Below the pieces are notes generated by a model. It saw nothing but the letters and a program-made list of their open reading frames with translations. It did not search any database and was not told the origin of the DNA. The position numbers and the translations under genes are program-made. Positions 12,811 through 50,491 of a stretch of 64,000 nucleotides of DNA are shown in pieces. This DNA is from Actinophytocola sp. (lineage in GTDB: Bacteria > Actinomycetota > Actinomycetes > Mycobacteriales > Pseudonocardiaceae): positions 18,878-82,877 of the forward strand of contig NZ_DASZCQ010000160.1 of assembly GCF_035942955.1 (NCBI RefSeq). Direction: 5' to 3'. Positions within the stretch are counted from its first letter, which is position 1. Each line of letters starts with the position of its first letter.

Positions 12811-12897
12811 ATCATCACTCTACCTTGACCAGGTGACAACGAGCGGCCATCGCGTGGACAAATGGCTGCGTCGTCGCACCTTGGAAGGACGCACGAT

Positions 12898-13365: not shown

Positions 13366-13372
13366 CGCTCAA

Positions 13373-30164: not shown

Positions 30165-32297
30165 TCAGGGAGTCGTTTGGTACTCGCGCATTGTCCGGGT
30201 TGGCAGCAGGGTTCGCGGGTCGAGGAGGCGGCTTAGGCGGCGGCCGAAACTCATGCCCTTGTGCAGTTCGGTGCGAATGGCGTCGTTGCATTGCCAGGCG
30301 AGTTCCGCGGCGTGGTCGAGGATTCCTTCCGGGGAGTAGGCAGCCCGGTCCACGATCTCGGCCAGTGGCCGCAGAAAGGGTTGCAGCGGACCGTGGACGA
30401 CCCCGATCACCTGGCCGGTGGTCGACCGGGGGCCGACGGGGATTCCGGCCCAACGCAGAGCGTCTATCGTGTCGCGCCAGGCCGCGATGGTGCGGCGGCG
30501 CGGGGTTCCGTTGTTACGGGCCCGTCGTCGCCGCACGATCCGGACGAGCGGAATCAGCCCGAGGCACAGGACCAGCGCGATGGCGACGATCGTGGCGAGG
30601 GTCGCCAAGCCGGACATGGAGTTGGCTGGCTGGGAAGAGAGATCGCCCTGGGCGTCGGCGGTGGCATCGGGTGGTTCCTCGGGAACCTGCTGGTCGGGCG
30701 ATGGTATGTCGTCGAGGGCGTCGGCCGGTGTGGGTTGCTGGACGGTCTTGCCTTGCCCATCAATGGATTGGGTCGGGCTCGGGTTGACCGGAATCCAGCC
30801 CAGCCGTTGGAACCGTACCTCGGCCCAGGCGAACACGTTCGCGCCACGGATGTGTAGGCGGTCTCCGTCCCAGGTCGGGCGGAATCCGAGGACGACGCGC
30901 GCGTCCCAGCCTAGATGGCGACTCAGCAGCGCGAACATCGAGGCGTACTGCTCGCTGGTGCCTCGTTTGGTGTTCACCAGGTCGGTGATCTGGCGTACCC
31001 CGTGGCCGCCGCGGGCCTGCGGGGAGTTGTCGTAGCTGAAGCCGCTGGTGCTCGTCATGGCCTGGTACAGGCCGAGCAACTGACCCAGACCGGCGGAACG
31101 TCCGGCTGTCGCGGTGTCGACGAACGCGAGCACCTCGGGCGGCAGCGGCAGGCGGCTTGCTTCGCTGGTGGCCGGGTCGTCGATGCCGACGTCGTTCGCC
31201 TCGAGGATGGGCTCGCGGCCGGTGATGCGGTAGGCGGCGGGAGTGTTCCGGTCGGCGGGCACCACGACATCACCGCTGGTGGCGTCGAATCCGAGGTCCG
31301 CCACGCTGATCTGGGTCGGCCGGCCAACGCGGGGTAGCCATCCGACGCTGTCGGGCGTCAGCACTTGCAGGTCGAGTGAGACGTCCCGGGTCGGGACCGC
31401 GGAGTCGGGAGTGGACAGCCGGGTACCGGCCCGCCGGTAGCTGGCTCCGATCGTCCAGGTCTGGCCGTCGAACCGGTCGAGCGTCACCATGCGGATGAGC
31501 TCGAGCCGCTCGCTCGCGGTGCCGGCGATCTCCAATGGCAGGAGGTTGTCCCGCAGCGCGAGGTAGCGCGCCATCGGATTCGTGTCCTCTTTGGGCAGCA
31601 CGGGCGCATCGACCAGAGCCTGCAGGCTGGTCGGGGGACGGTCGGCGGCGACGAGTGGCCCCAGCACGAGTCCGGACGCGGTCGCGATGAGCACGACCGC
31701 GGCGCCGGTCACCAGTCGCCCTTTCCCGAGTGCTCCCGCGAGCGCGGCTTCCCGGCCGGCCAGCACGACCGCCATGGCGACGACGGCGAAGACCGGCCCG
31801 TACCATGCGGCCGGTGCGCCGACGGTCGCGCTCAGCCCGAGACCGAGCAGCAGGCAGCACAGCGGGGGGAGCAGCGGCAGCCAGGCATTCCGCGGGCCCA
31901 GCGCCAGCCGGACGGCGATCAGCGCGGTGAAGCCGGCGATGGTCGAAATGGTTGCCAGTTCCGGACCGGATGGATCCACCGGGAGTGTCCCGGTCAGCAA
32001 CCGGGACGGTCCGAGCCGCACGTCCGCACCCGGCCTGGTCGCCAGCGCGACCGCGATGGCCACCGACAGCACGGCCAGCGCCACCGGGCCGTTGCCAAGG
32101 GCACGCCGGCCGAGCGGCACCGCAAGGCATCCCCAGCCGGCGGCCACCGCGACGGGCGCCAGGATCGCCAGGAGCAGCGGCGGTTCCGCGCCGTCGCCGA
32201 AGGTGGCCCGGAATGACCAGGCGGACAGTGCCGACAGCCCGGCCGCGAGGACGACTCGGACGAGGGCAATGCCCCGGCCGCCAAGCATCGCTGACAT
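30165..32297 (-). CDS. transglutaminase-like polytopic membrane protein (TgpA/DUF3488-like) with substituted catalytic triad
   Basis: From ORF 30165..32333. The ATG at 32297 overlaps the DUF58 stop (TGATG); the alternative start is 32333. It has N-terminal TM helices, a core 'KRGTSEQYASMFALLSRHLGWDARVVLGF...FAWAEV...WIPVNPSP', and a C-terminal TM. Confidence 0.8.
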   Translation of the reverse strand: MSAMLGGRGIALVRVVLAAGLSALSAWSFRATFGDGAEPPLLLAILAPVAVAAGWGCLAVPLGRRALGNGPVALAVLSVAIAVALATRPGADVRLGPSRLLTGTLPVDPSGPELATISTIAGFTALIAVRLALGPRNAWLPLLPPLCCLLLGLGLSATVGAPAAWYGPVFAVVAMAVVLAGREAALAGALGKGRLVTGAAVVLIATASGLVLGPLVAADRPPTSLQALVDAPVLPKEDTNPMARYLALRDNLLPLEIAGTASERLELIRMVTLDRFDGQTWTIGASYRRAGTRLSTPDSAVPTRDVSLDLQVLTPDSVGWLPRVGRPTQISVADLGFDATSGDVVVPADRNTPAAYRITGREPILEANDVGIDDPATSEASRLPLPPEVLAFVDTATAGRSAGLGQLLGLYQAMTSTSGFSYDNSPQARGGHGVRQITDLVNTKRGTSEQYASMFALLSRHLGWDARVVLGFRPTWDGDRLHIRGANVFAWAEVRFQRLGWIPVNPSPTQSIDGQGKTVQQPTPADALDDIPSPDQQVPEEPPDATADAQGDLSSQPANSMSGLATLATIVAIALVLCLGLIPLVRIVRRRRARNNGTPRRRTIAAWRDTIDALRWAGIPVGPRSTTGQVIGVVHGPLQPFLRPLAEIVDRAAYSPEGILDHAAELAWQCNDAIRTELHKGMSFGRRLSRLLDPRTLLPTRTMREYQTTP

Positions 32298-33466
32298 CAG
32301 CCCGCCACCCCACCGAGCACGAAATGGTTCCATGCCGCCATCGCCTCGGCGCCGGTTCGGCCGCTCAGCACGACCATCCCGGGCCGGCGGTACGGCGCCG
32401 GCAACGGCAGGCCCGCGGCCACGACCGTGATCACGACGACCGGCGCGAAGCGGCGGCGCTGTTCGGCCAGCCGGGCGACCACGGCCGGCTCGCCCGCTCC
32501 GGTGACGACGACCAGCGCACCGCCCGGTTCGGCTCGGTCCACCTCTTCCAGCAGGTGCACGGGTTCGGCATCCGGTTCGCGGACCGCTGCGGCCAGTCTG
32601 TCCAAGAGCGACACCGCGCCGGCGGCGATCACCGCGGGCACATCCTCGCCGAGGATCTGGATCCGGGCCGGCCGGCCACCGTCGACCGTGCCCTGCGCCA
32701 CCGATGCGGCCACCTCAACGGCGTGTTCGAACATCGCCGCGTCGAGCACCGACGACCGGGTGTCCAGGACGATGGTGACCGCCGGCTCCATGGTGTCCGT
32801 GGACTCCCGCACGATCAGTTGTCCGGTGTGGGCGGTGGAGCGCCAGTGGATCCGGCGTGGATCATCGCCGGGGACGTACTCCCGCAGCGAGGAGAACCAG
32901 GTCGTGCCGGCCTTCGACAGCTCGGCCCGGCCTTCGAAGTCGGGCACCGTCCCCACCGGTACGGGATACGACGGATGGACCCGGGGATGCACCCAGAGCA
33001 CGCCCGTGTCGCGATGCAGCTGCGCGCGGCGGAACAGGCCGAACGGATCCTGCCGTTCGACGCTCAACGGTCCCAGGGGCAACCGTCCCCGGCGATCGGT
33101 GGGGATGGGGTAGTGCACGGTGCGGGACCCGCCGGCTCGGAGGACGGGCACCTGTATCCCATGTGGACGGTCATCGACCCGGTCCACCACGACCATGGCG
33201 GGCAACGGCCACCGGGCCAGGTTGCGCACGACCAGCCGGCCCGCGGCGGGCTCGCCCACGCTGATCCGGTCCGGCGCCACGCTTCGGGTCAGCCGCAGGC
33301 TCGGCCGGACCACCACGGTGACCCCGGCCAGTGCGAGGACGGCAAGGCCGGTCAGGCCGAGCGTCACCAGCACCGGGTACCCCCAGGCCCGACCGACCAG
33401 CCCCAAGATCACGGCGGCGGCCACGACGCACCAGCCGCTGCCGGTCAGCGGAATCCGGCGGCTCAT
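32297..33466 (-). CDS. DUF58 domain-containing protein (vWA-like partner of MoxR)
   Basis: The start is the internal ATG of ORF 32297..33832, 2 nt after the moxR stop. It has two N-terminal TM helices and 'REYVPGDDPRRIHWRSTAHTGQLIVRE'. Confidence 0.85.
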   Translation of the reverse strand: MSRRIPLTGSGWCVVAAAVILGLVGRAWGYPVLVTLGLTGLAVLALAGVTVVVRPSLRLTRSVAPDRISVGEPAAGRLVVRNLARWPLPAMVVVDRVDDRPHGIQVPVLRAGGSRTVHYPIPTDRRGRLPLGPLSVERQDPFGLFRRAQLHRDTGVLWVHPRVHPSYPVPVGTVPDFEGRAELSKAGTTWFSSLREYVPGDDPRRIHWRSTAHTGQLIVRESTDTMEPAVTIVLDTRSSVLDAAMFEHAVEVAASVAQGTVDGGRPARIQILGEDVPAVIAAGAVSLLDRLAAAVREPDAEPVHLLEEVDRAEPGGALVVVTGAGEPAVVARLAEQRRRFAPVVVITVVAAGLPLPAPYRRPGMVVLSGRTGAEAMAAWNHFVLGGVAG

Positions 33467-33468
33467 GA

Positions 33469-34464
33469 TCAGCCGACCGCCGCCGGCGCCGGGGCCGGGA
33501 CCGAGGCCATGATCTCGGCGAGGATGTCGCCGGTCTTGATGCCGTGCACCTCCGCCTGTGCGGTGAGCACGAGCCGGTGGGCGAGCACGGGCGCGGCGAC
33601 CGCGCGCACGTCGTCCGGCACGACGAAGTGCCGACCGAGGCCGAGCGCGAACGCCTGGGCCGCGCGCAACAGGGCGAGGCTGCCACGGGTGCTCATGCCC
33701 AGCCGCAGGGCCTTGTGCTCCCGGGTGGCGTGCGCCAGCAACGCCACGTAGCGGACGACCTCCGGCGCCGCGTAGATCGACGAGGCCACCTGGTGCTGCA
33801 GCGCGGCGATCTGGTCGAGGCTGGCGACGCACCGCACGGCGGGCGCGGCGGCCTGCGCGCGGCCGGTCAGGATCTCGGTTTCGACGTCCAGATTCGGGTG
33901 GCCCAACGAGATCCGCATGAGGAACCGGTCCAGCTGCGCCTCGGGGAGCTGGTAGGTGCCTTCGAGATCGATCGGATTCTGCGTGGCGACGACGAGAAAT
34001 GGGGTGGGGACCGGACGGCCGCGCCCGTCCACCGTCACCTGGCCCTCCTCCATGACCTCGAGCAGGGCGGACTGCGTCTTCGGACTGGCCCGGTTGATCT
34101 CGTCGGCCAGCACGATGTTGGCGAACACCGGGCCGGGACGGAAGGTGAACTCCTGCTCGCCCTGATTCCAGACCGAGACGCCGGTGATGTCACCGGGCAG
34201 CAGGTCGGGCGTGAACTGGATCCGTTGCCAGCTGCCGGCGATGCTGGTGGCCAGCGCCTTGGCCAGCGACGTCTTGCCGGTGCCGGGCACGTCCTCGATC
34301 AGCAGGTGGCCGTTGGCGAACAGGCAGGCCAGGGCCAGCCGGACGGCCGCGGTCTTGCCGCGGATGGCACGTTCGACCTCCGCGAGCACGGCGTCGTGCA
34401 CGCTGCGGAACATCTGCTGCGGATCGCCCGGGATCACGGCGGGCGCGGTGTGCTGGTTGGTCAC
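33469..34464 (-). CDS. moxR: MoxR-family AAA+ ATPase
   Basis: From ORF 33469..35487; a GTG at 34464 follows AAGGAAA. Motifs: Walker A 'GTGKTS', Walker B 'LADEINRA', 'ATQNPIDLEGTYQLPEAQLDRF'. Confidence 0.9.
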   Translation of the reverse strand: MTNQHTAPAVIPGDPQQMFRSVHDAVLAEVERAIRGKTAAVRLALACLFANGHLLIEDVPGTGKTSLAKALATSIAGSWQRIQFTPDLLPGDITGVSVWNQGEQEFTFRPGPVFANIVLADEINRASPKTQSALLEVMEEGQVTVDGRGRPVPTPFLVVATQNPIDLEGTYQLPEAQLDRFLMRISLGHPNLDVETEILTGRAQAAAPAVRCVASLDQIAALQHQVASSIYAAPEVVRYVALLAHATREHKALRLGMSTRGSLALLRAAQAFALGLGRHFVVPDDVRAVAAPVLAHRLVLTAQAEVHGIKTGDILAEIMASVPAPAPAAVG

Positions 34465-34490
34465 GGATTTCCTTGGGATTGGTTGGGGTT

Positions 34491-36851
34491 TCAGCGCGGC
34501 AGGCAGGCCGGTCCGGCCGATGGTTCGGAGGGAGTGGTCACGCCGAGCGCGATCACGACGTAGCAGGCGGATGGCAGCGGATCGAGGTCCGGGAAGCTGA
34601 CGATGGCGCTGGGCACCGAATCGAGCAACTGTCCATTGCGGAGGATGACGAACGAGGTCAGTCCAGGCAGCTCGCGGGATTCGGGCGGCCAGGACAGCGT
34701 GACCCGCCCATCCGCGGTGTCGATCCGCACCGGCACCTTGTGGTCGGTACCGGGGAGCGTGGTCGTGGTGGGGGGCGGGGTGATCCGATCGGTGGAGTCG
34801 CGCTGGCCGACCCAGATTCCCACGCCGATGCCCAGAGCGGCGACCAGCCCGGCGATGGCGGTCAGCACCAGCCAGCGCCGCCGGGCCCGCCGGCGGTCCG
34901 GCGGCTCGGCGGGACGGGGATGCGGCGGATGGGCGCTGATCTCGGTCGGCGTCACTCCGGAGTGGACGGTGGCGTGCGGGTCGACCGGCTGCGGCGCCAC
35001 GTCGGGGGAGCTCAGCCAGGGCGGTTCCGCCGGCACGGCGATGCGCACGGTGCTCTCCGCGTCGATGACCGGGACCGGTTGAGCCGGTCCCGTCAGCAGG
35101 AGCTCCCTTGCCAGGTCGCTGAGCACCTCGGAGGCTTCGAGCGCGGTGGGGCGTCCGCGCGGATCCTTGGCCAGGCACGCCGCGAGAAACGACCACGCCG
35201 CCTCGGGCAGGTCCGGCGGGCGGGGCGGCGTGCGCAGCTGGTGCTGCCGGAGGATGTCCTCCGTGCTGCCGGCGAACGGGCGGTGTCCGGCCAGCACCTC
35301 GTACGTGGTGATGCCCAGCGCGTAGATGTCGCTGGCCGGGGTCGGCGACTCCCGGTTGACCAGCTCGGGTGCGATGTAGGGCGGTGAGCCGGGCAGATAG
35401 CCGAGTTGGGTGACCGGGGCTCCGTCGACCGCCTTCACCAGACCGAAATCGGTGAGCAGTGCCCGAGTCCGGCCATTCTGCTCGCACACCAGGATGTTCG
35501 CCGGCTTGAGGTCGCGATGGACGACGCCGCTCGCGTGCACGGCGGTCAGCCCGGAGGCGACCTCGGACAGCAGCCGCAGGCCCTCGGCCCGGTCGAGCTC
35601 CCCGGCCACCAGCAGCCGCCGCAGGTCGGTGCCCTCGACCAGGTCCATGATGACGGCCGCTTCGCCCTTGCCCTTGGCGATGTAGAGGTCACGCACCCGC
35701 ACCAGGTGCGGGTGGTCCAGGTCCTGCACCACCGATGCCTCGCGCACCAGCCGCATCAGGCTGTCGGGATCGGTGACCAGGTCCGGACGCAGCAGCTTGG
35801 CGGCCACGAGCATCCCGTCGGCTCGCCGCCGAGCCCGCCACACGGTGCCCATGCCGCCCTCGCCGATCCTCGCCAGCAGCTCGTACTCGCCGCCCAGCGA
35901 TCGCGGAAGTTCGGCGCCACGGTGCTCCGAGGGCACGGTGCTCCGGACGTCTATTGTGGACTGCGGATCCCGCAGGTGCTTGGCGAAAGCGGCCACCGAC
36001 GGTGGTCGGGAGCCCGGTTCGCTGGACAGCGCCCACCGCAACGCGGTGGTGAACTTCGCCGCGGCCTCGGGCAACTGGCCCACCGGGCTCTGCCCGGCGA
36101 ACAGCACCCGCTCGGCCCGGCTGCCGGAGAACGGTGGCCGGCCGCTGAGCAGGGTCCACAGCGTGGAGGCCAAGGCGTAGACCTCGCCGGCCGGCGTCCA
36201 GTCCTGCCCGGCGAGCTGCTCCGGTGGCTCGTGGCCGGTGCCCTCCGTGGTGGCCGCGGCAATCTCGGCGAGCGCCGGCAGCAGCGGGCAGTCCAGCACG
36301 ACGTGGCCGGTGGGCTGACGCAGCAGCGCGGCCGGGCTGATCGCCTGATGGACGGTGTCGTTGCGATGCAACAACTCCAGCCCGCTCGCGGCAGCCAGGA
36401 CGGCCTGCAGCGCCTCGGCGACGGGGAGCGGCCCGCGGGCGGCGAGCTCGTCGGCGAGCGACCGTCCTCGTCGAGCGGTGACCAGAACCGGGCGGCCGCC
36501 GGCATCCCGATCATGGTGCAGTAGCGGAAGAACGAAGGGGTTGCGGCTGACGGCGAGCACATTGTCCAGTGCCGCGGCCTCGTCCCGAACGCGCCGCAGC
36601 TGCGTCCGGTCCAGCTTGGCCACGACGACTCGCACGGTGACTTCGGTTCCGTCGTCCCGGATCGCCGGAGCGACCGCGAACAACCCGTCGTCGGTTGGTT
36701 CGCTCAACAGGCGGTAGCCGTCAAGCGGTCCGGCGGCCACTCCTGCGCCACCCCCACGAGAAAACGTCGATCTACCAACGCCGAACACATCACGCACGGC
36801 GTGCGGGCCGTTACACAGTACCCGCGGCCGGTGGTCGATCGTCGCGGTCAT
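34491..36851 (-). CDS. membrane Ser/Thr protein kinase with N-terminal pseudokinase domain, canonical kinase domain, one TM helix and an Fn3-like ectodomain
   Basis: ORF of 786 aa. The active domain has 'GEGGMGTVW', 'VAAKLL', 'HRDLKPANIL', 'DFGL', 'SPPYIAPE'. The N-domain has 'HQAISPAALL' and 'LDCPL' instead. The TM helix is 'WLVLTAIAGLVAALGIGVGIWVG'. Confidence 0.85.
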   Translation of the reverse strand: MTATIDHRPRVLCNGPHAVRDVFGVGRSTFSRGGGAGVAAGPLDGYRLLSEPTDDGLFAVAPAIRDDGTEVTVRVVVAKLDRTQLRRVRDEAAALDNVLAVSRNPFVLPLLHHDRDAGGRPVLVTARRGRSLADELAARGPLPVAEALQAVLAAASGLELLHRNDTVHQAISPAALLRQPTGHVVLDCPLLPALAEIAAATTEGTGHEPPEQLAGQDWTPAGEVYALASTLWTLLSGRPPFSGSRAERVLFAGQSPVGQLPEAAAKFTTALRWALSSEPGSRPPSVAAFAKHLRDPQSTIDVRSTVPSEHRGAELPRSLGGEYELLARIGEGGMGTVWRARRRADGMLVAAKLLRPDLVTDPDSLMRLVREASVVQDLDHPHLVRVRDLYIAKGKGEAAVIMDLVEGTDLRRLLVAGELDRAEGLRLLSEVASGLTAVHASGVVHRDLKPANILVCEQNGRTRALLTDFGLVKAVDGAPVTQLGYLPGSPPYIAPELVNRESPTPASDIYALGITTYEVLAGHRPFAGSTEDILRQHQLRTPPRPPDLPEAAWSFLAACLAKDPRGRPTALEASEVLSDLARELLLTGPAQPVPVIDAESTVRIAVPAEPPWLSSPDVAPQPVDPHATVHSGVTPTEISAHPPHPRPAEPPDRRRARRRWLVLTAIAGLVAALGIGVGIWVGQRDSTDRITPPPTTTTLPGTDHKVPVRIDTADGRVTLSWPPESRELPGLTSFVILRNGQLLDSVPSAIVSFPDLDPLPSACYVVIALGVTTPSEPSAGPACLPR

Positions 36852-39800
36852 CGGGCATCACCCGGCCCACCAACCAGGTCCTCGGTCAGGTGCAGCGGCA
36901 CCTGCGCCAACGTAGCCTGTCCACGAAGCACCAGTAGACCGCGCCCGGGTGGCCAGCCGCCCGCCATGGACCGGGACAGCCGCACGTCGAAGACCTCGCC
37001 GGCGAGATGGCTCGCCGGGTTGAGCAGCAGCCCGCTGCGCGCCCGGCGGGCCTGGGCCAGCCACCCGCGATACCGGTTGATCAACAGGTCGTCGGTCGTG
37101 GCCGCCGCCACGAGCACCGACCCGGTCTCCCGTGCCTCGAGGAGGAAACGTTCCAACGCCTCGCCCAGCGCAAGCTCGTCGACCAGCTCGCCGTCGTCAA
37201 CGACCACGGCGACCGGACCGCCGGCGGACAGGACCAGATCGTCGAACTCCGCCGGGGCCGCGCCGGTGGTCACGCCGAGCACACCGGCCAGGTCGGCCAC
37301 CTGCCGCAGCGGCGACGGCCGCGGTGTCACCAGCACGACCGGAAGCCGGCCGTCGGGACGGCCGGCAAGGCCGTGCACGATGGTGGCCAGCGTGCTGGAC
37401 CGTCCCGATCGGCCAGGACCGGCGACGACGAACGTTCCACCGACCTCGGCGAGATCGACGTCGACCGGGCCCGCGTGGTCTCCGCCGACGGCCGGAGTGC
37501 AGACGGTGGCGGCCGGCGACCGGGTGGCTCCCCTGAGCGCCTCGGCCTCGGCGATGGAGATCCGGTCCGGCAGCGGATCTATGCGGTGCGGCAACAACGC
37601 CGGGTCCAGGTCGTCCGCAGCGGCGCGCAGGCGTGCGGCGAGCCCGGCCAGCGCCCGGATCTGTGCGGCCCCGGACGGGTCTGCGTCGAGGAGCGGGAGC
37701 TGGACCTCCTCTCCGGCGGCCGTCCAGATCGCCCGGCCCGCCGGCATCCGGGCCGGCACGGCCCGCGGCGAAAGCCCGAAGACCGCGACGTCGTCCCGAT
37801 CCGCCTGGCGCAGCACCAACCGGTGCTCGATGGCGGTGGCGATCCGTGGTCCGAACGCGGTGCGGTCCGTGCTCAGCACCGTCACCAGCCCGACGGCCGG
37901 TCCCCGGCGCAGCAGTCCCTCCAGCAGCTCCACCAGGCGGCCGCCGTCGTGCTCGTCGAAGGCGGATCGGAATCCCTCCAACCGATCCAGCAGCAGGATC
38001 AGGTAGGGCAACCGGTCCGCCGGCGCGGCGGCCCGGCGTTGCTCGGCAAGACCGCTGTACCCGCCGGCCAGCACGCGTTGCCGGCGGCGCACCTCACCGT
38101 CCAGCCAGTCCAGCAGGCGCGCCACCCGCATCGAGTCCTCGGCATCCACAATGGCGCCGCTGTGCGGCAGCTCGGCGAGCGGCGCCAGGGCCCGATTGCC
38201 GCAGTCCAGGCCGTAGATGTGCACGGTGTCCGGTCCGGTGGCCGCGCACAGGCCGGCGGCGATGGCGCGCAACGCGGTGGAGCGACCGGTCCGCACCGTG
38301 CCACCCACTGCGATCGGCCCGGTCCGCTCGAGATCGAGCTCGAAGGCGTCCTGTGCCTGCGCGGTGGGCCGATCGACGAGTCCTAATAGGACACAGAGCG
38401 GCGGCCGTTGGGAACCCGGCGAGAGTTCCGCGGTGACGACGTCGGGCAGCGGCGGCAGCCACGGGCGCCGCGGACTGCTCAGGCCCAGCTGCCGCGCGGC
38501 CACTCGGCTCGCGGCCACGAGGGCGGTCAGATCGGTGTGCCCATCGGCGTCCACGTCGGCGGCCGCGCTCGCGCCCGCCCTGGGCGAGCGGCCGAGCTCC
38601 GTCGTCCGCCGGGGGCGCACGGACACCGGCTCCGGGCCCGGCGACTCGGCATCGGCGGCCCTGGGCCAGCCGACCCGGGCGGCCTGGAAGGCAGTCAGGT
38701 CGCCGTGGCCGGTGCGCAGGTATGCCCGGCCCGGTTGACGCGAGGTGATGCGGGCGGCATCCGGTGCGTCGATCACGTCCACCGACTCGCTCTCCGCGGT
38801 GACCCGCAAGCAGATCCTCAGGTTGAGGTTGGCCCGCAGGTCGGCGGTCACCACGCCGCCCGGACGCTGGGTGGCGAGCACCACGTGCACGCCGAGGCTT
38901 CGGCCGCGCATGCCGATGCCCACCACGCCCGGAACGAACTCCGGGACCTCCTCGATCAGCGAGGCGAACTCGTCCACCACGATCACCAGCCGGGGCAACC
39001 GGTCTCCGGTGCGGGCCCAGTAGTCGTCGATGTCCTTCGCCTCGGCGTCGGCGAGCAGCTTCTCCCGGCGGCGGAGCTCGGCCGACAGCGAGTCCAGCGC
39101 GCGGCCGACCAGGTGCCCGTCGAGGTCGGTGATCAACCCGACGCAGTGTGGAAGCTCCGCGCAGGCGGCGAATGCGCTCCCGCCCTTGTAGTCGACCAGG
39201 ACGAAGGTCAGCGCGTCGGGCATGTTGCGCACGGCCAGCGACGCGATCAGGGTCTGCAGCAGCTCGGATTTCCCGGCGCCCGACGTGCCGGCGATCAGCG
39301 CGTGCGGGCCGTCCCGGCGAAGGTCGACGGTGAGCGGCCCGGACGGGCCGACGCCAAGCACGGCCGTGGTGGACCGGCCCTCGGGTGAGCCCGCCCACGC
39401 CGCGCGGACCAGCTCGCCGTCGGTCTCCCGGCCCGAGATCGCCAGCCCGGCCAGCTCGGTGAACCGGACCCGCTCCGGCAGCGCCTCCGCACCCGCGGGC
39501 ACGCCGAGCGTGTCGAGCGGCGCCAGCGCCAGCGCCATCCGCATGGCGTGGCCCGGCTCGAGGCCGTCCACCAGGAGGTCCTCGATGACCGGCAGGTCGG
39601 CGCGACGCAGCCGGGCCCGGCTTCCGGACGGGCTGGTCAGCACGGCGGTCGCGCCGCATTCCGCCGGCAGCGCCGTCTCGTCGTCATCCAGGCAGAGGGC
39701 GTACACACCGGCGGTGGGCCCGTCGGCCAGCAGCTCGGCCAGCCCGGGCAGTCCGCGCATCCGCCGGGCGCCGTCCACGACGACGAGGAACTCCCGGCCG

Positions 39801-41290
39801 GCCGAGCGTCCCGTGCGCAGCGAGGAGCGTTGCCGCACAAGGCGTTCCGCGACCAGTGCGCGCAGTTCGGACAGCCTCGACTCGGCCTGGGCGCCGTCCG
39901 TGGCGACCAGGCGAGAGCTGCCGAACGTCGGGCCGGACGGCCGGGTGTGCGGCAGCCAGGTCGCCCATTCCCAGTCAGCGGATTCGTCCTGCCCGGTGAT
40001 GACGACGACGCCCAGGTCCCGCGGCGCGTGCAGCCCGCCCGCCTGGGTCACGACTGCCCGCGCGGCGGCGAGCAGGCCACGGCGTTCCCCGGCCATGCCG
40101 AGGACTCCGACCCGGCGCAGCTCGACCGTCGCGGGAACGTCGCGCACGGTGGGCACCGCGGGCAACTCGGCCGAGCCACCGCGGGGTTGCGGATAGCGGG
40201 GATCGAACCGCAGCCGCAGCTCGGCCTGCCGGTCGTGCAAGCCCAGCCGCAGCCGAAGGAAGTCGGGATCGCTCGGGCGCCTTTCCCATAGCCGTGCGGA
40301 TGGTGCGCACGCGGCAGCGGCGACCCAGGACGGATCGGGGTGGACGGCACGCGCCCGGCGCTCGTCCGCGGCGCACGCGGCGGCGAGTGCGCCGCGGAAC
40401 GTCTCGAGCGCCAGGTCGTACTCCTTCTTCCGCGCCGCGTACTCCCGGCGCCCCGAACGCCGGTCCCCGATCAGGTTGGCCAGCACCATGACCGGGCTGA
40501 GCAGCATGATCAGCAGGAAGTAGCCGGCGTTGGGCAGCAGGACGTACAGCCCCCCGCCGAACAGCAGCGGCAGCAGCACGGCGATCCACGGGAACCGGAA
40601 ACCGCTGGGCTTGTCCGGTTCCACCGGCACCAGCAGCGCGTGGGGCGGCTCCGGCATGGAGATCCGCGGCGGCCGGTTGAACCAGCGCGTACCGTTTCCC
40701 GGTTCGGCCGTGACGTCCGCGTCCGCAAGCACCGTCGGGCGCAGGCCGAGCACCGTCTCGCCCAGGCCGGCCACGTCGCCGACGGCGAGCCGGGCCGGTT
40801 CGGTCAGCCGCCATCCCTGCCAGCGGATTCCGTTGTGGGAGTTGGCATCCGCCAGCCATACGACACCGTCCGCGCCGACCGAGATCGTGGCGTGGACACG
40901 GCTGACCTCCGGATCGGCAATCGCCAGGTCGGCCTCCGGTCCGCGGCCCAACCGCAGTTCGGTGCCGGGATACAGCAGGCGGCTCGGTCCGCCATGCAGG
41001 CCGCCGACGACCGAGATCTCCGGAATCTCCCCACTGGTCACGCCGTGGCCGGAGGTCAGCAGCGGTTGGCCGACCCCGACCACGGCGCCGTTGGCGAGTC
41101 CCGAATCCGCCACCGACACGTCACCCGGTACCGGCATGGTCCCCAGATACAGGGGACCGGCGGCCCGGTCGCCGAGGTGCTCGGCCAGAGCCGCGGTCAG
41201 GTCCGCGATGCGGTGGGACGGTGCGGCCGTGACGACCACCGGACGCGACACGCCGTCCGGGCCGACACAGACCAGCTCGATCTCGGTCAT
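36848..41290 (-). CDS. EssC/EccC-like type VII secretion FtsK/SpoIIIE ATPase: ubiquitin-like N-domain, FHA domain, 2 TM helices, three P-loop domains
   Basis: ORF of 1480 aa. FHA: 'LRLGRGPEADLAIADPEVSRVHATI...ADANSHNGI'. D1: 'GTSGAGKS', 'VIVVDEFA', 'LATQRP'. D2: 'GGTVRTGRST'. D3: 'GPGRSGRSS', 'VVVVDDGE'. Confidence 0.85.
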   Translation of the reverse strand: MTEIELVCVGPDGVSRPVVVTAAPSHRIADLTAALAEHLGDRAAGPLYLGTMPVPGDVSVADSGLANGAVVGVGQPLLTSGHGVTSGEIPEISVVGGLHGGPSRLLYPGTELRLGRGPEADLAIADPEVSRVHATISVGADGVVWLADANSHNGIRWQGWRLTEPARLAVGDVAGLGETVLGLRPTVLADADVTAEPGNGTRWFNRPPRISMPEPPHALLVPVEPDKPSGFRFPWIAVLLPLLFGGGLYVLLPNAGYFLLIMLLSPVMVLANLIGDRRSGRREYAARKKEYDLALETFRGALAAACAADERRARAVHPDPSWVAAAACAPSARLWERRPSDPDFLRLRLGLHDRQAELRLRFDPRYPQPRGGSAELPAVPTVRDVPATVELRRVGVLGMAGERRGLLAAARAVVTQAGGLHAPRDLGVVVITGQDESADWEWATWLPHTRPSGPTFGSSRLVATDGAQAESRLSELRALVAERLVRQRSSLRTGRSAGREFLVVVDGARRMRGLPGLAELLADGPTAGVYALCLDDDETALPAECGATAVLTSPSGSRARLRRADLPVIEDLLVDGLEPGHAMRMALALAPLDTLGVPAGAEALPERVRFTELAGLAISGRETDGELVRAAWAGSPEGRSTTAVLGVGPSGPLTVDLRRDGPHALIAGTSGAGKSELLQTLIASLAVRNMPDALTFVLVDYKGGSAFAACAELPHCVGLITDLDGHLVGRALDSLSAELRRREKLLADAEAKDIDDYWARTGDRLPRLVIVVDEFASLIEEVPEFVPGVVGIGMRGRSLGVHVVLATQRPGGVVTADLRANLNLRICLRVTAESESVDVIDAPDAARITSRQPGRAYLRTGHGDLTAFQAARVGWPRAADAESPGPEPVSVRPRRTTELGRSPRAGASAAADVDADGHTDLTALVAASRVAARQLGLSSPRRPWLPPLPDVVTAELSPGSQRPPLCVLLGLVDRPTAQAQDAFELDLERTGPIAVGGTVRTGRSTALRAIAAGLCAATGPDTVHIYGLDCGNRALAPLAELPHSGAIVDAEDSMRVARLLDWLDGEVRRRQRVLAGGYSGLAEQRRAAAPADRLPYLILLLDRLEGFRSAFDEHDGGRLVELLEGLLRRGPAVGLVTVLSTDRTAFGPRIATAIEHRLVLRQADRDDVAVFGLSPRAVPARMPAGRAIWTAAGEEVQLPLLDADPSGAAQIRALAGLAARLRAAADDLDPALLPHRIDPLPDRISIAEAEALRGATRSPAATVCTPAVGGDHAGPVDVDLAEVGGTFVVAGPGRSGRSSTLATIVHGLAGRPDGRLPVVLVTPRPSPLRQVADLAGVLGVTTGAAPAEFDDLVLSAGGPVAVVVDDGELVDELALGEALERFLLEARETGSVLVAAATTDDLLINRYRGWLAQARRARSGLLLNPASHLAGEVFDVRLSRSMAGGWPPGRGLLVLRGQATLAQVPLHLTEDLVGGPGDAR

Positions 41291-41295
41291 GGCCG

Positions 41296-41556
41296 TCAGT
41301 GGTTGGCGGCCTGGTCGATCAGGTGCTTGCGCCGGTCGACCTCCTGCGCCGCGCGGCTGAGCTCATCGGCCAGGTTGCGCAGCGCCGGGTTGAACTCGCT
41401 CTCCCACGCCTGCCGGAACCGGTCCGCGGCCGCGCCGGTCCAGGTGGTGGTGTTGATCAGCGTGGTGAGGGCGCGCTGCAGGTCGGTGACCTCCCCACCG
41501 CACACGCCCAAGCGGCGGGACAGCGTCTCCAGCTCGGCCAGCTCCGCCTTGATCAT
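41296..41556 (-). CDS. WXG100-family protein (86 aa)
   Basis: Its size, helical character and central 'TTWTGAAADRFRQAW' (W-x-G) fit the family. Its stop lies 5 nt upstream of the EssC-like start. Confidence 0.65.
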   Translation of the reverse strand: MIKAELAELETLSRRLGVCGGEVTDLQRALTTLINTTTWTGAAADRFRQAWESEFNPALRNLADELSRAAQEVDRRKHLIDQAANH

Positions 41557-41637
41557 GGCAGCTCCTCGGGTCGATTCGTTCCGGTCGGCTCGACGCTAAG
41601 AGGCTTGCGCCGCAATGGAAATGGGAAGCCCTGCCCA

Positions 41638-42309
41638 CTACCTGCCCGGCAGCAGCCGGAGATCGCCGGAGTTGATCAGCCGGCTAGTCAGTGCGTATTC
41701 GGCCAGGTTGCTCAGCGCGTTCGGGCCCGTCATGGCGGGCACACCGGCCTTGTCGAGCCGGCTGCGCAGGTACTCGATCCGCTTCACGAGCGTGGTTCTA
41801 GCCCACCCCAACCGTTTGGCGGCCGCCTCGTACGAGCGCGGGTGCGGGTCGTACCGGTCGCCTTCCTCCAGGTAGCCGGCGAACAGGGCGATCAGCGCCA
41901 GCCGGTCCTGCTGTGTGATCGTCACGTCCTGGCCGATCGTGGTGGGCACGCCGTCGACCGGTAGCTCGACCTGCGGTGTCCGGCGCTCCGGCGCGTCCAC
42001 GCGGAGCAGGTACGGCTTGGGCCGGCTGCCCTGCACCAGAACACGCATGCGGCCTTCCAGGGCGAATTTTCGGCCCGGCGCGAGCACGCTGCGGATCCCG
42101 TGCGTGTCGACCACTTCCAACATGCGAGTAGAGCTCACGTTCACCAGAAACCACGTTCCGTTGTCGGACCGGATGATGCCGGCCGTGCGGGAAATCGCGG
42201 CGTCGTCCGGGGCCAGGCAGTGCGTGCACTGCGTGGACCTGCCGAAACTGAACTCGTGTCCAATCTGGAGGACATATTTGTCCATTTCCGCGTGGACCGT
42301 CACGCTCAT
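41638..42309 (-). CDS. FHA domain / C-terminal HTH regulator
   Basis: ORF of 223 aa with the FHA-like 'FSFGRS....ISRTAGIIRSDNGTWFLVNVSS' and C-terminal 'AAAKRLGWARTTLVKRIEYLRSRL'. Confidence 0.65.
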   Translation of the reverse strand: MSVTVHAEMDKYVLQIGHEFSFGRSTQCTHCLAPDDAAISRTAGIIRSDNGTWFLVNVSSTRMLEVVDTHGIRSVLAPGRKFALEGRMRVLVQGSRPKPYLLRVDAPERRTPQVELPVDGVPTTIGQDVTITQQDRLALIALFAGYLEEGDRYDPHPRSYEAAAKRLGWARTTLVKRIEYLRSRLDKAGVPAMTGPNALSNLAEYALTSRLINSGDLRLLPGR

Positions 42310-42416
42310 GCTCCGGTTACTCCTCGTCCAGTTGGGAAGCGCTCCCTAGTTACACCCCCGCAACGGCTTTTGTATTCTGCCGGACGTCTTCCGCCGCCGA
42401 GGCACAGGAGTAAGAC

Positions 42417-44939: not shown

Positions 44940-44951
44940 CCGCTCGGTGAG

Positions 44952-44988
44952 ACCGCCTCGGACGTGTGGTCCGAGGCGGTTTCTTCTT
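44952..44988 (+). terminator. intrinsic terminator after the PASTA-protein gene
   Basis: An 11-bp perfect stem ACCGCCTCGGA/TCCGAGGCGGT with a 7-nt loop, followed by TTCTTCTT. Confidence 0.8.
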
Positions 44989-45062
44989 GGGGAGCCTTTC
45001 CCGTTTCATCGTACTGACGAGCCGGCCAGACTTCGGGTGAACGAGGCTCGAGGAGGCTGGTG

Positions 45063-45344
45063 ATGGTCAAGAAGGACCCTTCACGAAATGGCGCGGGGGC
45101 GCGGTTCGAGGAGGCGGCGGAGCGGATCGCCGCCGAGATCCGCCGCCTCGATGACATCGGTGACGATGTCCGGCGGCGGCTGCGGGAGCTGCGGTGGACC
45201 GGTCGCTCCGCCGACTCCTTCCGGCGGCACGCCGTGCACCAGGCCGTGCGGGCCGGGCACAACCGCGAACTGATGGAGTCGCTGCGGGTGATGCTGATCC
45301 GGGCGGCCCAGGTAACCAACGCCGCGACGCGGGTGCAGCCATGA
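45063..45344 (+). CDS. WXG100-like small helical protein (93 aa)
   Basis: An ATG 6 nt after AGGAGG (a GTG alternative is at 45060). 'LRWTGRSADSFRRH' resembles the W-T-G-x-x-A-D-x-F-R motif of the protein at 41296..41556. Confidence 0.55.
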   Translation: MVKKDPSRNGAGARFEEAAERIAAEIRRLDDIGDDVRRRLRELRWTGRSADSFRRHAVHQAVRAGHNRELMESLRVMLIRAAQVTNAATRVQP

Positions 45345-46165
45345 CCGCGGCGCTCGTGCTCACCACCGACGAACTTCGGGTGTCGACCACGGTCGCGGGA
45401 GCTCCGGTGCCGGCCGCGCTGCGGGCCGACTGGTCCACAGAGGACATGCCGGTGGCCGACCTGGTCGCGTTGCGCGGGCTGCTCGCTAGGGGGCTGGCGA
45501 GCTCCGGCGCGGGAGACGTCAGCCTGGCCGATGACCTCTCGCTGGCCCTCGGACCATTCCTGACCGGCCGTGTTCTCGTTGACGTGCAACGAGATGGCGC
45601 GGTTCGGCCGGGCCGCCGCCTGATCGCGAAGGGCGCGGCGGGAGTGGTCAGCTGCGCCGAGCACGGACCGGACCTGTGGCAGGTCGAACCAGCCGACCCG
45701 GATCCGGTCGAGCGGCTGGTGGCCGACCTGGTCGATCACCTACCCGACACCGAGGCGTCCCACCCCGGCGTGACCCTGCCCACCGATCTACTCGCCGAGG
45801 CCGAGCGGCGGTCGGCGACCGGGGCCACCGAGCACACGCGTGGAATGTTGGTGCGGCGCGGTTTGCCGCCCGGGACCGCCGAGGTCGTGGCACGGGTGCT
45901 CGGCGACCTGGGCACGACCGTGACCGTGCGGTCCTCGCACCGTAACGGATCCACCACCCGATGCGCGGCGATCACCTGGCTGGAGACCGGTTCGACGGGT
46001 GTCTGGCTCGCCGTACCCGACGACGACCCCCTGGCCGATGTCGACCCCGCCGTGCCGCCGACGGGCCTTGCGGGACACACCAAGCTGCGGCCGGTGAGCA
46101 CCGGCACCCTGCGCGACGAGGTGCGTGACGTGGTGGAAATCCTCGGATCGGAGTGGACGGGATGA
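45341..46165 (+). CDS. EspG-like (ESX secretion-associated chaperone family) protein
   Basis: The start is the internal ATG of ORF 45194..46165, overlapping the upstream stop (ATGA). At ~274 aa, its overall pattern 'LT..EL.......G.P.P..LR...........L..RGL' resembles EspG as I remember it. Confidence 0.45.
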   Translation: MTAALVLTTDELRVSTTVAGAPVPAALRADWSTEDMPVADLVALRGLLARGLASSGAGDVSLADDLSLALGPFLTGRVLVDVQRDGAVRPGRRLIAKGAAGVVSCAEHGPDLWQVEPADPDPVERLVADLVDHLPDTEASHPGVTLPTDLLAEAERRSATGATEHTRGMLVRRGLPPGTAEVVARVLGDLGTTVTVRSSHRNGSTTRCAAITWLETGSTGVWLAVPDDDPLADVDPAVPPTGLAGHTKLRPVSTGTLRDEVRDVVEILGSEWTG

Positions 46166-47505
46166 GCAGGCTCTCCGCGCGTGAGATCGCCGAACATGCC
46201 TACGCGGCCGGCTTTCGCGGTCAGGCGCTGACCACCGCGGTCGCCGTGGCGCTGGCCGAGTCCGGCGGCAATCCCAAGGCCCGCGGGGATACCACGATCA
46301 CCGACGGCACATGGGGTCCGTCGATCGGCCTGTGGCAGATCCGCTCGCTGCGCTCCGACTACGGCACCGGCGACGAGCGCGACGCCAAGGCCAACCTCGA
46401 CCCCGCCACCAACGCCCGGCACGCCTGGTCGATCTCCGATCATGGCACCAACTGGACCCCGTGGTCGGCCTACACCAACGGCAGCTACCGGCGGTATCTC
46501 GACACCGCGCGGGCGGCGGCGCAGCAGGTTGCCGGCGGGCACTCCGGCGGCGGCGGACATTCCAGCGGCGGCGGGCAGTCCGGCGGTGAGCGGTCGGACG
46601 GTGAACGGCGCCGGCGGCCGGCAAGAGGCGACGCTCGCCCGGCCAGCGACCGGATCGTGCTCGACCTGCACGAGCTGCGCGAGCTGCACACGTTCTTCGA
46701 CCGCTGCGCCGACCGGGTCCGGCATGTCCGGCGGGTGGTGGCCGACATCGAACGCGATCTGGAGCCGGCCAGGGCCGCGCTCACCGACACCGCGCTGGCC
46801 GGCCTGATCACGCAGGCCTTCGCCTTCCTCCAGTCGCCTCCCATGTTGCCCAAGGCCGAGGAACGAATGGACTGGCACGCCCGGTTCGCCGAGCGGGTGC
46901 GTCGCCTCGCCGAGCGCGCCGACGGCGCCGACGGCAAGTGGACCCGGTCGGACGCGCTGCGGTTCGCCACCGGCATGGGCCGCGCGGACCGGGCCGAGCG
47001 GGCAGTCCTCGAGGCCCTGATCATGGGCACCATCGTGCGCCGCCGCAGCGACCTGCGGCAGCACCTGCACCGTGACCGTGACCGCGACCACGAACCGCGG
47101 TCCGGCGACGGCACACCGGCCAGGGTCGACGTATCGGGACTGCGTAACGGCCACGTGCCGGCGAGCAGGCTGGCTTCCGTCGGAGACGGCGAGAAGCTGC
47201 TCGAGCCGGTCGCCCGGGCGTTTCGCCGGATGGACGCCGCCGCCCGGGCCGCCGGCCTCGATCTCCATGTCAATTCCGGATATCGAAGCTATGCCGAACA
47301 AGCGCAGCTGTACCGCGACTACCAGAACGGGACCGGCAACCTGGCGGCGCCACCCGGTCGAAGCACGCACGGGCTCGGACTGTCCGCCGACATCAACGTC
47401 ACCAATCCACGAGTCCAGGCCTGGCTACGCGAGAACGCGGCGAAGTACGGCTTCGTCAACGACGTGGCGAGCGAGCCATGGCACTGGACCTACCAGCACA
47501 GGTGA
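46162..47505 (+). CDS. bifunctional cell-wall hydrolase: N-terminal lytic transglycosylase-like domain + C-terminal VanY/M15 D,D-carboxypeptidase-like domain; no signal peptide
   Basis: From ORF 46153..47505, with an ATGA overlap to the upstream gene. Motifs: 'AESGGNP.....TDGTWGPSIGLWQI' (SLT-like) and 'SGYRSYAEQ', 'GRSTHGLGLSADI', 'EPWHW' (M15B/VanY). Confidence 0.7.
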   Translation: MSRLSAREIAEHAYAAGFRGQALTTAVAVALAESGGNPKARGDTTITDGTWGPSIGLWQIRSLRSDYGTGDERDAKANLDPATNARHAWSISDHGTNWTPWSAYTNGSYRRYLDTARAAAQQVAGGHSGGGGHSSGGGQSGGERSDGERRRRPARGDARPASDRIVLDLHELRELHTFFDRCADRVRHVRRVVADIERDLEPARAALTDTALAGLITQAFAFLQSPPMLPKAEERMDWHARFAERVRRLAERADGADGKWTRSDALRFATGMGRADRAERAVLEALIMGTIVRRRSDLRQHLHRDRDRDHEPRSGDGTPARVDVSGLRNGHVPASRLASVGDGEKLLEPVARAFRRMDAAARAAGLDLHVNSGYRSYAEQAQLYRDYQNGTGNLAAPPGRSTHGLGLSADINVTNPRVQAWLRENAAKYGFVNDVASEPWHWTYQHR

Positions 47506-49338: not shown

Positions 49339-50491
49339 CGGCACCTTGGATTCGTGACGTACCAGTCTCGTACCCGCGTAGTCGTTCCCGGCCTCCCGAC
49401 GGCGCGACACATCCACATCTACGAGGACAATCCAGCCGGTCCAAACCTGCAATGTTCGTACCGCCGGCCACGAAGGCAAGAGCGATTGCGCGTTCGCGCA
49501 AGCATCGGGACCACACGAGTGCGGGGCCATCCTTGCAGACCACAGATATGGTCAAGTTCTATACCATCGTCAATGCTGGCATGTGACTCGCGGCAGAAGA
49601 TTACGTTGGAACGCCCCGATACCAACTTCGTGGTGTTCCGCATCTCTGGTCGCCGATTACGAGGACTTGCAGGCTTGGCGCGTGGTTGTTGGCCGCGTTG
49701 TGTCTTCTACGGCCGCACCTGCGCACTGTCGGCTCCTGCAACCCGGACCGGAGCTCGTCGACCTTGCTCAGGCGGGGAGCAGCGTTGGACGACCTGTGCT
49801 CAGCCGGGGGCGTTGGGGCAGGTGTGGGAAAGGTGAGGCGCTCACCGGTGACGTTCCTCGGCGTGGGAATGGTGATTTGTTCCCATCCGGTGAGTGTCTC
49901 GCCGGGCTGGCCCCATCGCTGCCACCGGTCGGCACCGTTTTCGTTCCGGGTTCCGGGAAGTCGATGTGCTCCACCGGGGTGCCGGCACCGTCGCTGCGCA
50001 GCCACTTGGTTCGAACGCCGAGCGAGCGCGCACAGCCGTGACGAAAGCCATCAGGTCGGTCATCGCCCACATCATGGCGCACGACCCAGTCCTGGGTGGG
50101 CATCTGCGCCAGGCGATCAACACCGGCACCTGCTGCGCATACATCCCGGACCCCACCGCCCCGCTGCACTCGAGTTTCTGAACCGCGGCTGCCAACCCCT
50201 GACTGGTCGAGCGCAGCACGTCGGTAACCCGGCCGCACATCGAGGGCCGGGGAGAAAGGCGGCCGGTGGTCGTTGAACGGCCAGGGTGACGGGCCCGCCG
50301 CCGGGGACTCCGGTGAGGACCTCGGGCTCGGCATCGGGGCCGCACCCACCGCACGCTGGAAGCGATCATGCCGGCGTCGTCGATGTCGCTGGCGTCCGAG
50401 CCGACACCTGGGTCGCCCACCGTCCCGCGGACGGCCCCACCCGGTTCGGCCACGATGGCGGTGGCCGGTACGAGGGCGGCTCGTACTCGTC

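Follow-up and report, generated by a model that had tools for sequence, protein, structure and literature searches.

The 64,000-nucleotide stretch of contig NZ_DASZCQ010000160.1 analysed here (hereafter the window, GC content about 70%) comes from a metagenome-assembled genome (MAG) of Actinophytocola sp. (Pseudonocardiaceae), and near its centre lies a locus that is probably a type VII secretion system (T7SS, Esx) cassette gated by phospho-threonine and coupled to an envelope-sensing module of the Esr (epibiont sensing and response) or PFNA type. Seven open reading frames (ORFs) on the minus strand (30165-42309) are arranged head to tail and encode an FHA-HTH protein, a WXG100 protein, an FHA-bearing ATPase, a kinase, a MoxR-family ATPase, a DUF58 protein and a transglutaminase (TGase)-like protein. 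All seven were found where a preliminary description of the window had placed them, and the junctions that it listed were reread from the sequence with identical results: 5 nt between the WXG100 and ATPase genes, ATGA between the ATPase and kinase genes, 26 nt between the kinase and MoxR genes (the latter starting with GTG at 34464), 2 nt between the MoxR and DUF58 genes, and TGATG between the DUF58 and TGase-like genes. The gap of 81 nt between the FHA-HTH and WXG100 genes was absent from that list. Gene spacing suggests that the seven genes are co-transcribed. Encoded divergently on the opposite strand, beyond an intergenic region of 107 bp (42310-42416), are a surface protein with a beta-propeller and four PASTA domains, already recognized as a PASTA protein in the preliminary description, and then a trio consisting of a WXG-like protein, an EspG-fold protein and a peptidoglycan hydrolase, whose genes (45060..47505) are coupled by ATGA overlaps at both junctions. 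The features are listed in Table 1.

Table 1. Features of the putative T7SS and envelope-sensing locus, in the order of their coordinates in the window.
Feature	Coordinates	Strand	Basis
TgpA-like polytopic membrane protein (TGase-like), 710 aa	30165..32297	-	Pfam Transglut_core 3e-14, DUF4129, TgpA_N
DUF58 protein, vWA-like MoxR partner, 389 aa, two N-terminal transmembrane helices	32297..33466	-	Pfam DUF58 2.2e-9
MoxR-family AAA+ ATPase, 331 aa	33469..34464	-	Pfam AAA_3 2.4e-62, AAA_lid_2 7.6e-24, bpMoxR 1e-7
Membrane receptor kinase, 786 aa	34491..36851	-	Pfam Pkinase 3.2e-57 (two stretches), motifs, transmembrane helix
EssC/EccC-family T7SS ATPase, 1480 aa	36848..41290	-	Pfam, NCBIfam, transmembrane, profile and motif analysis
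WXG100 protein (EsxA-like), 86 aa, W-T-G motif	41296..41556	-	Pfam WXG100 1.5e-8
FHA-HTH protein (gene 1): FHA, aa 1-105; C-terminal helical domain, aa 133-219	41638..42309	-	Fold search
Surface sensor candidate, 840 aa	42417..44939	+	Pfam PASTA 4.5e-18 (four stretches), profile searches
Small helical WXG-like protein, 94 aa, W-T-G motif	45060..45344	+	EspA_EspE E 0.0064, WXG100 E 0.17, both below cut-off
EspG-fold chaperone candidate, 274 aa	45341..46165	+	AlphaFold and Foldseek
Peptidoglycan hydrolase	46162..47505	+	Pfam SLT_3 2.4e-31, VanY 1.1e-17

The ATPase scored 486 bits against the NCBIfam model of EssC (TIGR03928, E 2e-145), 413 bits against EccCa (TIGR03924) and 284 bits against EccCb (TIGR03925). 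These scores are under the NCBI equivalog cut-offs (778, 509 and 347, respectively), and the protein is therefore, on profile evidence, a divergent member of the EssC/EccC family and not a conjugative translocase. With this ATPase, an adjoining WXG100 gene and an EspG-fold gene nearby, the locus is indeed type VII secretion-like, as had been proposed. It is very improbable that the locus has nothing to do with secretion and that the FHA-FtsK protein instead moves DNA in the manner of TraB or SpoIIIE, in conjugation or chromosome segregation. The public annotation does read "DNA segregation ATPase FtsK/SpoIIIE" and PADLOC returns generic FtsK-domain matches, but the models of DNA translocases scored only 57 bits (FtsK) and 29 bits (TraB) on the same protein; the identity was rejected on these scores, and with it the grouping with TraB/Tra-type translocases that the preliminary description had envisaged as the outcome contradicting its reading. 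The multi-domain EssC layout with two N-terminal transmembrane (TM) helices, the WXG100 gene adjacent in most related loci and the EspG-fold neighbour speak against a DNA translocase as well.

The layout of the ATPase comprises a ubiquitin-like domain (residues 1-73), one FHA domain (94-185; Pfam 2.2e-11), two TM helices (234-252 and 256-274), a stalk/DUF region, an ATPase domain D1 and the degenerate domains D2 and D3; the Pfam match of the protein to FtsK_SpoIIIE had an E-value of 4.8e-49. The ubiquitin-like domain was recognized in a profile search against PDB by its match to ISG15 ubiquitin-like proteins (E 2.6e-5), and the N-terminus had no Pfam match to YukD. Of the EssC architecture ascribed to the protein earlier, the FHA, the two TM helices, the ATPase domains and the ubiquitin-like N-terminus stand, but the protein carries a single FHA domain and firmicute EssC carries two. 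The residues of this FHA domain that bind phospho-threonine (G115, R116, S130, R131, H133 and N153) are invariant in 18 homologues, and the domain is, judging by these residues, competent for phospho-threonine binding. Walker A-like motifs occur at residues 668, 997 and 1291. D1 is canonical, with the Walker A motif GTSGAGKS at 668 and the Walker B motif VVDE at 771, and in D2 (residues 997-1004) and D3 (residues 1291-1298) an Arg takes the place of the Walker A Lys (GxxRxGR[ST]) in 54/54 full-length homologues, so that the substitution in the alignment is a family-wide signature. The protein encoded next to the ATPase scored 35.2 bits against Pfam WXG100 (cut-off 27.3) and 44.2 bits against TIGR03930 (cut-off 44.85), and it is the predicted small secreted substrate of the ATPase.

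The kinase protein consists of a pseudokinase domain (residues ~40-300), an active Hanks kinase domain (323-573), a TM helix (661-679) and a beta-rich ectodomain of ~100 aa. The first domain is without the conserved Lys, HRD and DFG; the second retains Lys, HRD, DFG and APE, which are conserved across 27 orthologues. By these motifs, domain 2 is catalytically intact and domain 1 is degenerate, in agreement with the earlier call of a pseudokinase-kinase. In profile searches the pseudokinase was nearest to PknB (E 5.7e-28). Homology of the pseudokinase to EssB was considered and rejected at the sequence level, since the profile matched only Hanks kinases (PknB, PknA, PknE); it may nevertheless be a functional analogue of EssB. 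The best NCBIfam and PADLOC matches of the kinase include the anti-phage kinases MADS6/mad6 and PD-T4-6, which probably reflect generic Hanks-kinase similarity; in PADLOC, the matches were limited to generic kinase and FtsK domains, and none corresponded to a known anti-phage system.

Two further proteins are candidates for the input and the output of this kinase. The FHA-HTH protein had no Pfam match, and its FHA identity was settled by the fold search, a profile of 47 sequences having performed worse against PDB than one of six. Its AlphaFold model (pLDDT 90.1) retrieved only FHA domains among the top 50 PDB matches in Foldseek (Rv1747 FHA-1 with E 7.6e-7), the match to TagH-FHA had an E-value of 1.3e-4, and hhalign gave a probability of 67% for its alignment with the FHA domain of the ATPase. 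The product of gene 1 thus has, according to the model, an FHA fold; its residues G23, R24, S40, R41 and N57 are conserved in 60 homologues, and it is a candidate for a phospho-dependent transcriptional output. The candidate sensor consists of a signal/anchor helix (16-34), a beta-propeller (~130-360), a Pro-rich linker, four PASTA domains (420-690) and a Cys-containing C-terminal domain for which Pfam returned nothing. The propeller is predicted from profile matches to NirF (E 8e-6) and YncE (E 5.8e-5), and PQQ_2 was matched in 7/29 sensor orthologues. The PASTA region matches the ectodomain of PknB (E 1.3e-26).

The last three genes of the operon encode the MoxR-family ATPase, the DUF58 protein (the DUF58 family being vWA-like) and the TGase-like protein, which is composed of seven N-terminal TM helices, a transglutaminase-core domain, an eighth TM helix and DUF4129. 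At its triad positions Ser-Phe-Asn replaces Cys-His-Asp, which bears out the earlier view of a dead transglutaminase. The nucleophile Cys was found in 0/15 orthologues and in 0/113 full-length representatives of the subfamily (down to E 1e-33); its column is occupied by Ser, Ala, Pro, Glu and other residues, and the His and Asp are often kept. The TGase-like protein is therefore, as far as its alignment tells, a family-wide membrane pseudoenzyme that constitutes a large clade.

The preliminary description stated that no T7SS variant of such composition was known; this no longer holds, as systems of this kind have been described both among T7SS variants with kinases and FHA proteins and among Esr pathways beside esx genes. 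Eight further T7SS arrangements, T7SSc-j, were reported by Garrett, Higginson and Palmer (microLife 2024; PMC11217815); T7SSd, to which T7SSc and T7SSe are related, is actinobacterial. According to these authors, kinases, phosphatases and FHA proteins are frequent in T7SS variants, the FHA domain of TsdC/TseC retains the phospho-threonine site, and phosphorylation was proposed to control assembly, with phospho-threonine control of FHA-bearing T7SS ATPases by membrane kinases (PMC11217815). T7SSd and the locus described here have in common an actinobacterial host, an ATPase with an N-terminal FHA domain and the phospho-threonine consensus, a WXG100 protein, a membrane Ser/Thr kinase with its active site, a large surface protein, and the lack of EccB, EccD, EccE and MycP. 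T7SSd contains TsdH, which is small and has one TM helix, and TsdI, which has 1654 aa, Ig-like repeats and a C-terminal TM helix; it lacks a ubiquitin-like component (PMC11217815). In contrast, the operon here has no TsdH-like or other small TM ORF, its surface protein combines a propeller with PASTA domains and is anchored by its N-terminus, unlike the Ig-repeat TsdI, the ATPase itself includes a ubiquitin-like domain (TsdC being compared by description only), and MoxR, DUF58 and TGase-like proteins are present. The MoxR/DUF58/TGase set has 0 occurrences in PMC11217815, in which EspG-like proteins are given for T7SSh and not for T7SSd.

The Esr pathway was defined in Schaalia (Wang, Colautti ... 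Mougous, bioRxiv 2026-09-09; PMC13622651) and consists of a propeller-tipped surface protein, MoxR, a vWA protein, a transglutaminase, a kinase, a phosphatase and an FHA output. One copy (Esr1) controls transcription via threonine phosphorylation of an FHA protein, and an esx-linked copy controls the secretion of a subset of substrates post-translationally; 40% of 3502 Esr pathways adjoin esx genes, FHA-EccC fusions are "numerous", the presence of Esr is patchy in Mycobacteriales and Streptomycetales, and for the transglutaminase EsrD a role in the covalent attachment of EsrA at the surface was proposed (PMC13622651). The locus shares with Esr a surface protein, putatively targeted by Sec (here through the helix 16-34), in which a beta-propeller is combined with a repeat linker. 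Further common features are MoxR, a vWA-type partner (here DUF58), a TGase-like protein and a Ser/Thr kinase with an FHA output, together with genomic linkage to an EccC ATPase and WXG100, the FHA-EccC fusion and a proposed post-translational gating of secretion; this likeness is judged from the published description of the Schaalia proteins. It differs from Esr in the sensor linker (PASTA here, Ig-like repeats in Esr), in the additional N-terminal pseudokinase domain of the kinase and the ubiquitin-like domain of the ATPase, in a second FHA output (FHA-HTH) within the locus, in a TGase-like protein without the catalytic Cys, in the absence of a phosphatase from the ORFs tested in the window, in the cargo (an EspG-fold chaperone and a peptidoglycan hydrolase here, AesA/AesB in Esr) and in the order of the host (Pseudonocardiaceae).

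A related gene order is known from the PFNA operon of bifidobacteria, pkb2-fn3-aaa_atp-duf58-tgm, with an optional prpC, a hypothetical gene and fha, and bifidobacterial Pkb2 was reported to phosphorylate the MoxR of the operon (PMC8430577). The order of kinase, MoxR, DUF58 and TGase-like genes and the FHA partners are common to both loci, whereas the PFNA operon is without a T7SS ATPase or WXG100, has a separate FN3 protein and often includes a phosphatase. What is already known thus covers the kinase/FHA variants of T7SS, Esr beside esx, FHA-EccC fusions and the PFNA gene order. Lineage-specific are the fused ubiquitin-like domain, the pseudokinase-kinase, the PASTA sensor linker, the TGase-like protein without nucleophile, the lack of a detected phosphatase, the EspG-like chaperone with hydrolase cargo, and the Arg-substituted D2 and D3 of the ATPase; in view of these differences the locus is a variant of the published systems and not a plain member of them.

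Based on these comparisons, a working model can be outlined. The surface-held propeller-PASTA protein would detect an extracellular cue, which could be another cell, nearby or attached, or pieces of cell wall, and would switch on the receptor kinase together with the MoxR, DUF58 and TGase-like proteins. The resulting phospho-threonines would be read by two FHA domains: that of the ATPase would license the assembly or activity of the motor as a post-translational gate, and that of the FHA-HTH protein would alter transcription. The motor would then export the WXG100 protein, and also the hydrolase with the aid of the EspG-like chaperone and the WXG-like partner. By analogy with the core unit of B. 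subtilis, the ubiquitin-like domain, the FHA domain and the pseudokinase domain may form a structural docking unit. Control through phospho-threonine and FHA domains, which the preliminary description had suggested, is plausible given the FHA residues invariant in 18 homologues and the intact kinase; the evidence favours MoxR, DUF58 and the TGase-like protein as a sensing module rather than as replacement subunits of the channel.

Several points weigh against this model. No match to the families of EccB, EccD, EccE, MycP, EssA, EssB or EsaA was found among ~40 tested ORFs of the window, and EccB, EccD, EccE and MycP were neither present in six annotated homologous loci nor recurrent in 71 flanking ORFs of 17 loci. 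The absence in cis of the canonical T7SSa/b membrane partners is supported for both the window and its relatives; it was correctly noted before, and the contrary outcome that had been proposed, relatives that always carry eccB/eccD/mycP beside this gene set, was not observed. A phosphatase of the EsrF/PP2C type is likewise missing from the tested ORFs of the window, unlike in the Schaalia pathway and in a Pengzhenrongella locus described below. The TGase-like protein is predicted to be incapable of the covalent anchoring of the sensor proposed for EsrD, since it has no catalytic Cys. The C-terminal domain of gene 1 is probably an HTH, but the HTH matches behind this call, though convergent, are weak and sub-threshold and are supplemented only by predicted helices. 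The 94-aa protein, a probable co-secretion partner, is only weakly assigned as WXG-like. Co-transcription is deduced from gene spacing, as the promoter/terminator scan returned 0 sites and is uninformative at 70% GC. Finally, sequence, fold and synteny establish the domain architecture and the state of the catalytic sites, but for this lineage the course of signalling, the proteins phosphorylated by the kinase and hydrolase export are inferred by analogy.

The missing membrane partners lend themselves to another explanation, in which the kinase, MoxR, DUF58 and pseudo-transglutaminase would replace EccB/D/E/MycP or EssA/EssB/EsaA in a self-sufficient minimal T7SS. The locus would then encode a complete third T7SS membrane architecture with a hexameric ubiquitin-like-FHA-EssC motor; the pseudokinase-kinase would dock like EssB while still signalling catalytically, the Cys-less TgpA-like protein with its eight TM helices would provide a scaffold like EccD, and DUF58 and MoxR would act in assembly. 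Such a machine could do without EccB/D/E/MycP and EssA/EsaA, and the Esr/PFNA module would be a part of the machine and not only its upstream sensor. Both the replacement and the complete architecture are considered unlikely. In their favour are the lack of a canonical partner in the 64-kb window and in the related loci mentioned above, the conservation of the TGase-like protein as a pseudoenzyme with eight TM helices, which fits a scaffold, the translational coupling of the genes to the ATPase, the EssB-like topology of pseudokinase, TM helix and ectodomain, and the presence of the ubiquitin-like and FHA modules of T7SSb. Set against this, the kinase-MoxR-DUF58-TGase set exists without a T7SS ATPase in PFNA and in Esr1, where it controls transcription; the gene order relative to the ATPase varies among related loci (L020, L050, L054 and L066), and a further locus, L025, has no ATPase within 10 kb; the pseudokinase is PknB-like and not EssB-like by sequence; and canonical ESX genes could lie elsewhere in the genomes.

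The comparison with the well-studied T7SSs is relevant here. The core unit of T7SSb in B. subtilis is composed of the FHA domains of EssC, the pseudokinase EssB and the ubiquitin-like protein YukD (Oka et al., Sci Adv 2025; PMC12637312). All three cytoplasmic module types of this unit (YukB/EssC, YukC/EssB and YukD) are represented in the present locus in two polypeptides, the ubiquitin-like domain being joined to the ATPase and the pseudokinase to an active kinase. However, there is one FHA domain here and two there, the phospho-threonine-binding residues are kept here and not in EssC, no match to the EssA or EsaA families was found here, and the pseudokinase here is of PknB type. With the mycobacterial ESX systems (T7SSa) the locus shares an EccC-type ATPase, a WXG100 substrate and an EspG-fold chaperone, and EccD also carries a ubiquitin-like domain; it differs from them in that EccB/D/E and MycP were not found in cis and in that the ATPase has FHA and ubiquitin-like domains and an Arg in the Walker A motifs of D2 and D3.

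To survey the distribution of the locus, the FHA-HTH gene was used as the marker, with one genome per species. Relatives of this gene occur in at least 114 species, and the following counts refer to the 45 loci with full 10-kb flanks. The sensor gene lies beside the FHA-HTH gene in 29 of the 45; the ATPase and the kinase (within 10 kb) each accompany it in 28 of these 29, in line with the neighbourhood co-occurrence that had been proposed as a check, followed by MoxR (27), DUF58 (26), the TGase (20, a count limited by flank length), WXG100 (20, by tblastn) and the hydrolase with the EspG-like gene (8). The same set, a sensor next to FHA-HTH, WXG100, ATPase, kinase, MoxR, DUF58 and TGase, was found in Lentzea, Jatrophihabitans and Frankia, and also in a MAG assigned to Acidimicrobiales. 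In a "Limnocylindrales" MAG the part from WXG100 to TGase is kept, and no sensor or FHA-HTH gene was found in the 10-kb flanks of its contig. In variant loci, the ATPase follows the TGase gene or the block is inverted. The locus of Pengzhenrongella phosphoraccumulans (L004, 1-15000) has the order MoxR, DUF58, TGase, RDD, PP2C, FHA protein, kinase, FHA-HTH-like, FHA-ATPase and WXG100, followed by seven small unannotated ORFs; it is nearer to the published Esr2 layout and contains the PP2C phosphatase that was not found in the present window.

In the remaining 16 of the 45 loci, most of which come from Acidimicrobiaceae, the FHA-HTH gene stands by itself, as a rule next to leuS. In L033, L034, L041, L047 and L085 (around position 10000) this cassette-free gene is divergent from leuS, which encodes leucyl-tRNA synthetase. 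The assumption that the FHA-HTH gene is always tied to the cassette was rejected on this account, and the regulator family is thus broader than the T7SS cassette. The flanks of the cassette differ in every genome: 104 Pfam families were recorded among the 71 ORFs of 17 loci, and no T7SS component recurs among them. This is the behaviour of a cassette, and the entirely different flanks suggest that the unit is horizontally mobile.

The nature of the cargo bears on what the system may be used for. The protein encoded second in the plus-strand trio had no Pfam match, and a sequence-only PDB search was empty. Its AlphaFold model is of moderate quality (pLDDT 68.8), yet the top 18 Foldseek matches in PDB were all EspG1, EspG3 or EspG5 (E 4e-10 to 3e-6, the next match having an E-value of 0.03), and it has, on this structural evidence, an EspG fold and is a chaperone candidate. 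Measured against HMM thresholds, the earlier WXG and EspG calls divide: the minus-strand WXG100 passed in Pfam, the WXG-like protein stayed below the cut-offs, and the EspG call failed in Pfam and was recovered by fold. The hydrolase combines an SLT_3 lytic transglycosylase domain with a VanY-type D,D-/L,D-carboxypeptidase domain, and between them lie a Gly-rich linker and then a helical region. Its sequence shows neither a TM helix nor a signal helix, and by analogy it is a probable T7SS cargo. The orthologous positions in related loci hold CHAP or SLT hydrolases.

Such cargo would also suit a role in cell-wall homeostasis or development instead of defence, with the PASTA domains sensing muropeptides or lipid II of the cell itself, as in PknB, and the T7SS exporting an autolysin used in growth, in the remodelling of hyphae or in sporulation. 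In Streptomyces, sporulation is influenced by ESX, most of the hosts are soil actinomycetes that form filaments and spores, the four PASTA domains are nearest to the PknB ectodomain, and the cargo combines SLT and carboxypeptidase domains, with CHAP or SLT hydrolases in the orthologous loci. However, the hydrolase/EspG trio was detected in only 8/29 loci, and variable cargo is typical of effector modules; the cassette-like differences between flanks point the same way, and the sole experimental precedent for the module is defence against epibionts (PMC13622651). We regard this role as rather unlikely, though somewhat less so than the self-sufficient architecture discussed above.

In the window, the locus is bordered on the left by core genes, namely a fabD-fabH-acpP-fabF cluster and genes for a PucR-type regulator, aceE, DUF3052, bcp and tRNA-Val, and on the right by poorly annotated genes, with Ada/AlkA and metabolic genes further on. 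The tRNA-Val(TAC) gene is located at 26739-26813, 3.3 kb left of the cassette, and both GC content and third-codon-position GC fall over ~27-57 kb. On the right, a 583-aa ORF (47779-49530, minus strand) without Pfam or PADLOC match and a 202-aa ORF with one TM helix (50492-51100, minus strand) were observed; a relative of the 583-aa protein adjoins the sensor gene in locus L043, and the ORF could be a further cargo or accessory gene. Elsewhere in the window, a low-GC stretch (12200-14410; 0.60 vs ~0.72) lies between the genes for a ClpX-zinc-finger protein and a carboxyltransferase and contains three minus-strand ORFs (12220-12810, 12898-13365 and 13373-14410), of which the last resembles by eye a cNMP-binding/HTH regulator; this stretch may be a small foreign insert.

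If the locus is a phospho-threonine-gated T7SS cassette with an envelope-sensing module, it raises two questions, namely which proteins build the T7SS channel if none of the known membrane partners is encoded in the vicinity, and what role a TGase-like protein plays in a subfamily that is entirely without the nucleophile, the latter fact arguing against the covalent-anchoring model in this clade. Experimental support for the Esr-Esx connection comes so far only from oral Schaalia, and the locus would widen this connection to actinomycetes that live in soil or in association with plants, including Pseudonocardiaceae, Micromonosporaceae, Streptosporangiales, Frankia, Jatrophihabitans and some Acidimicrobiia. 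It would provide a compact model in which a single kinase serves two FHA domains, the first acting in transcription and the second being part of the motor protein, and the predicted EspG-chaperoned peptidoglycan hydrolase would give a clear read-out in secretion assays.

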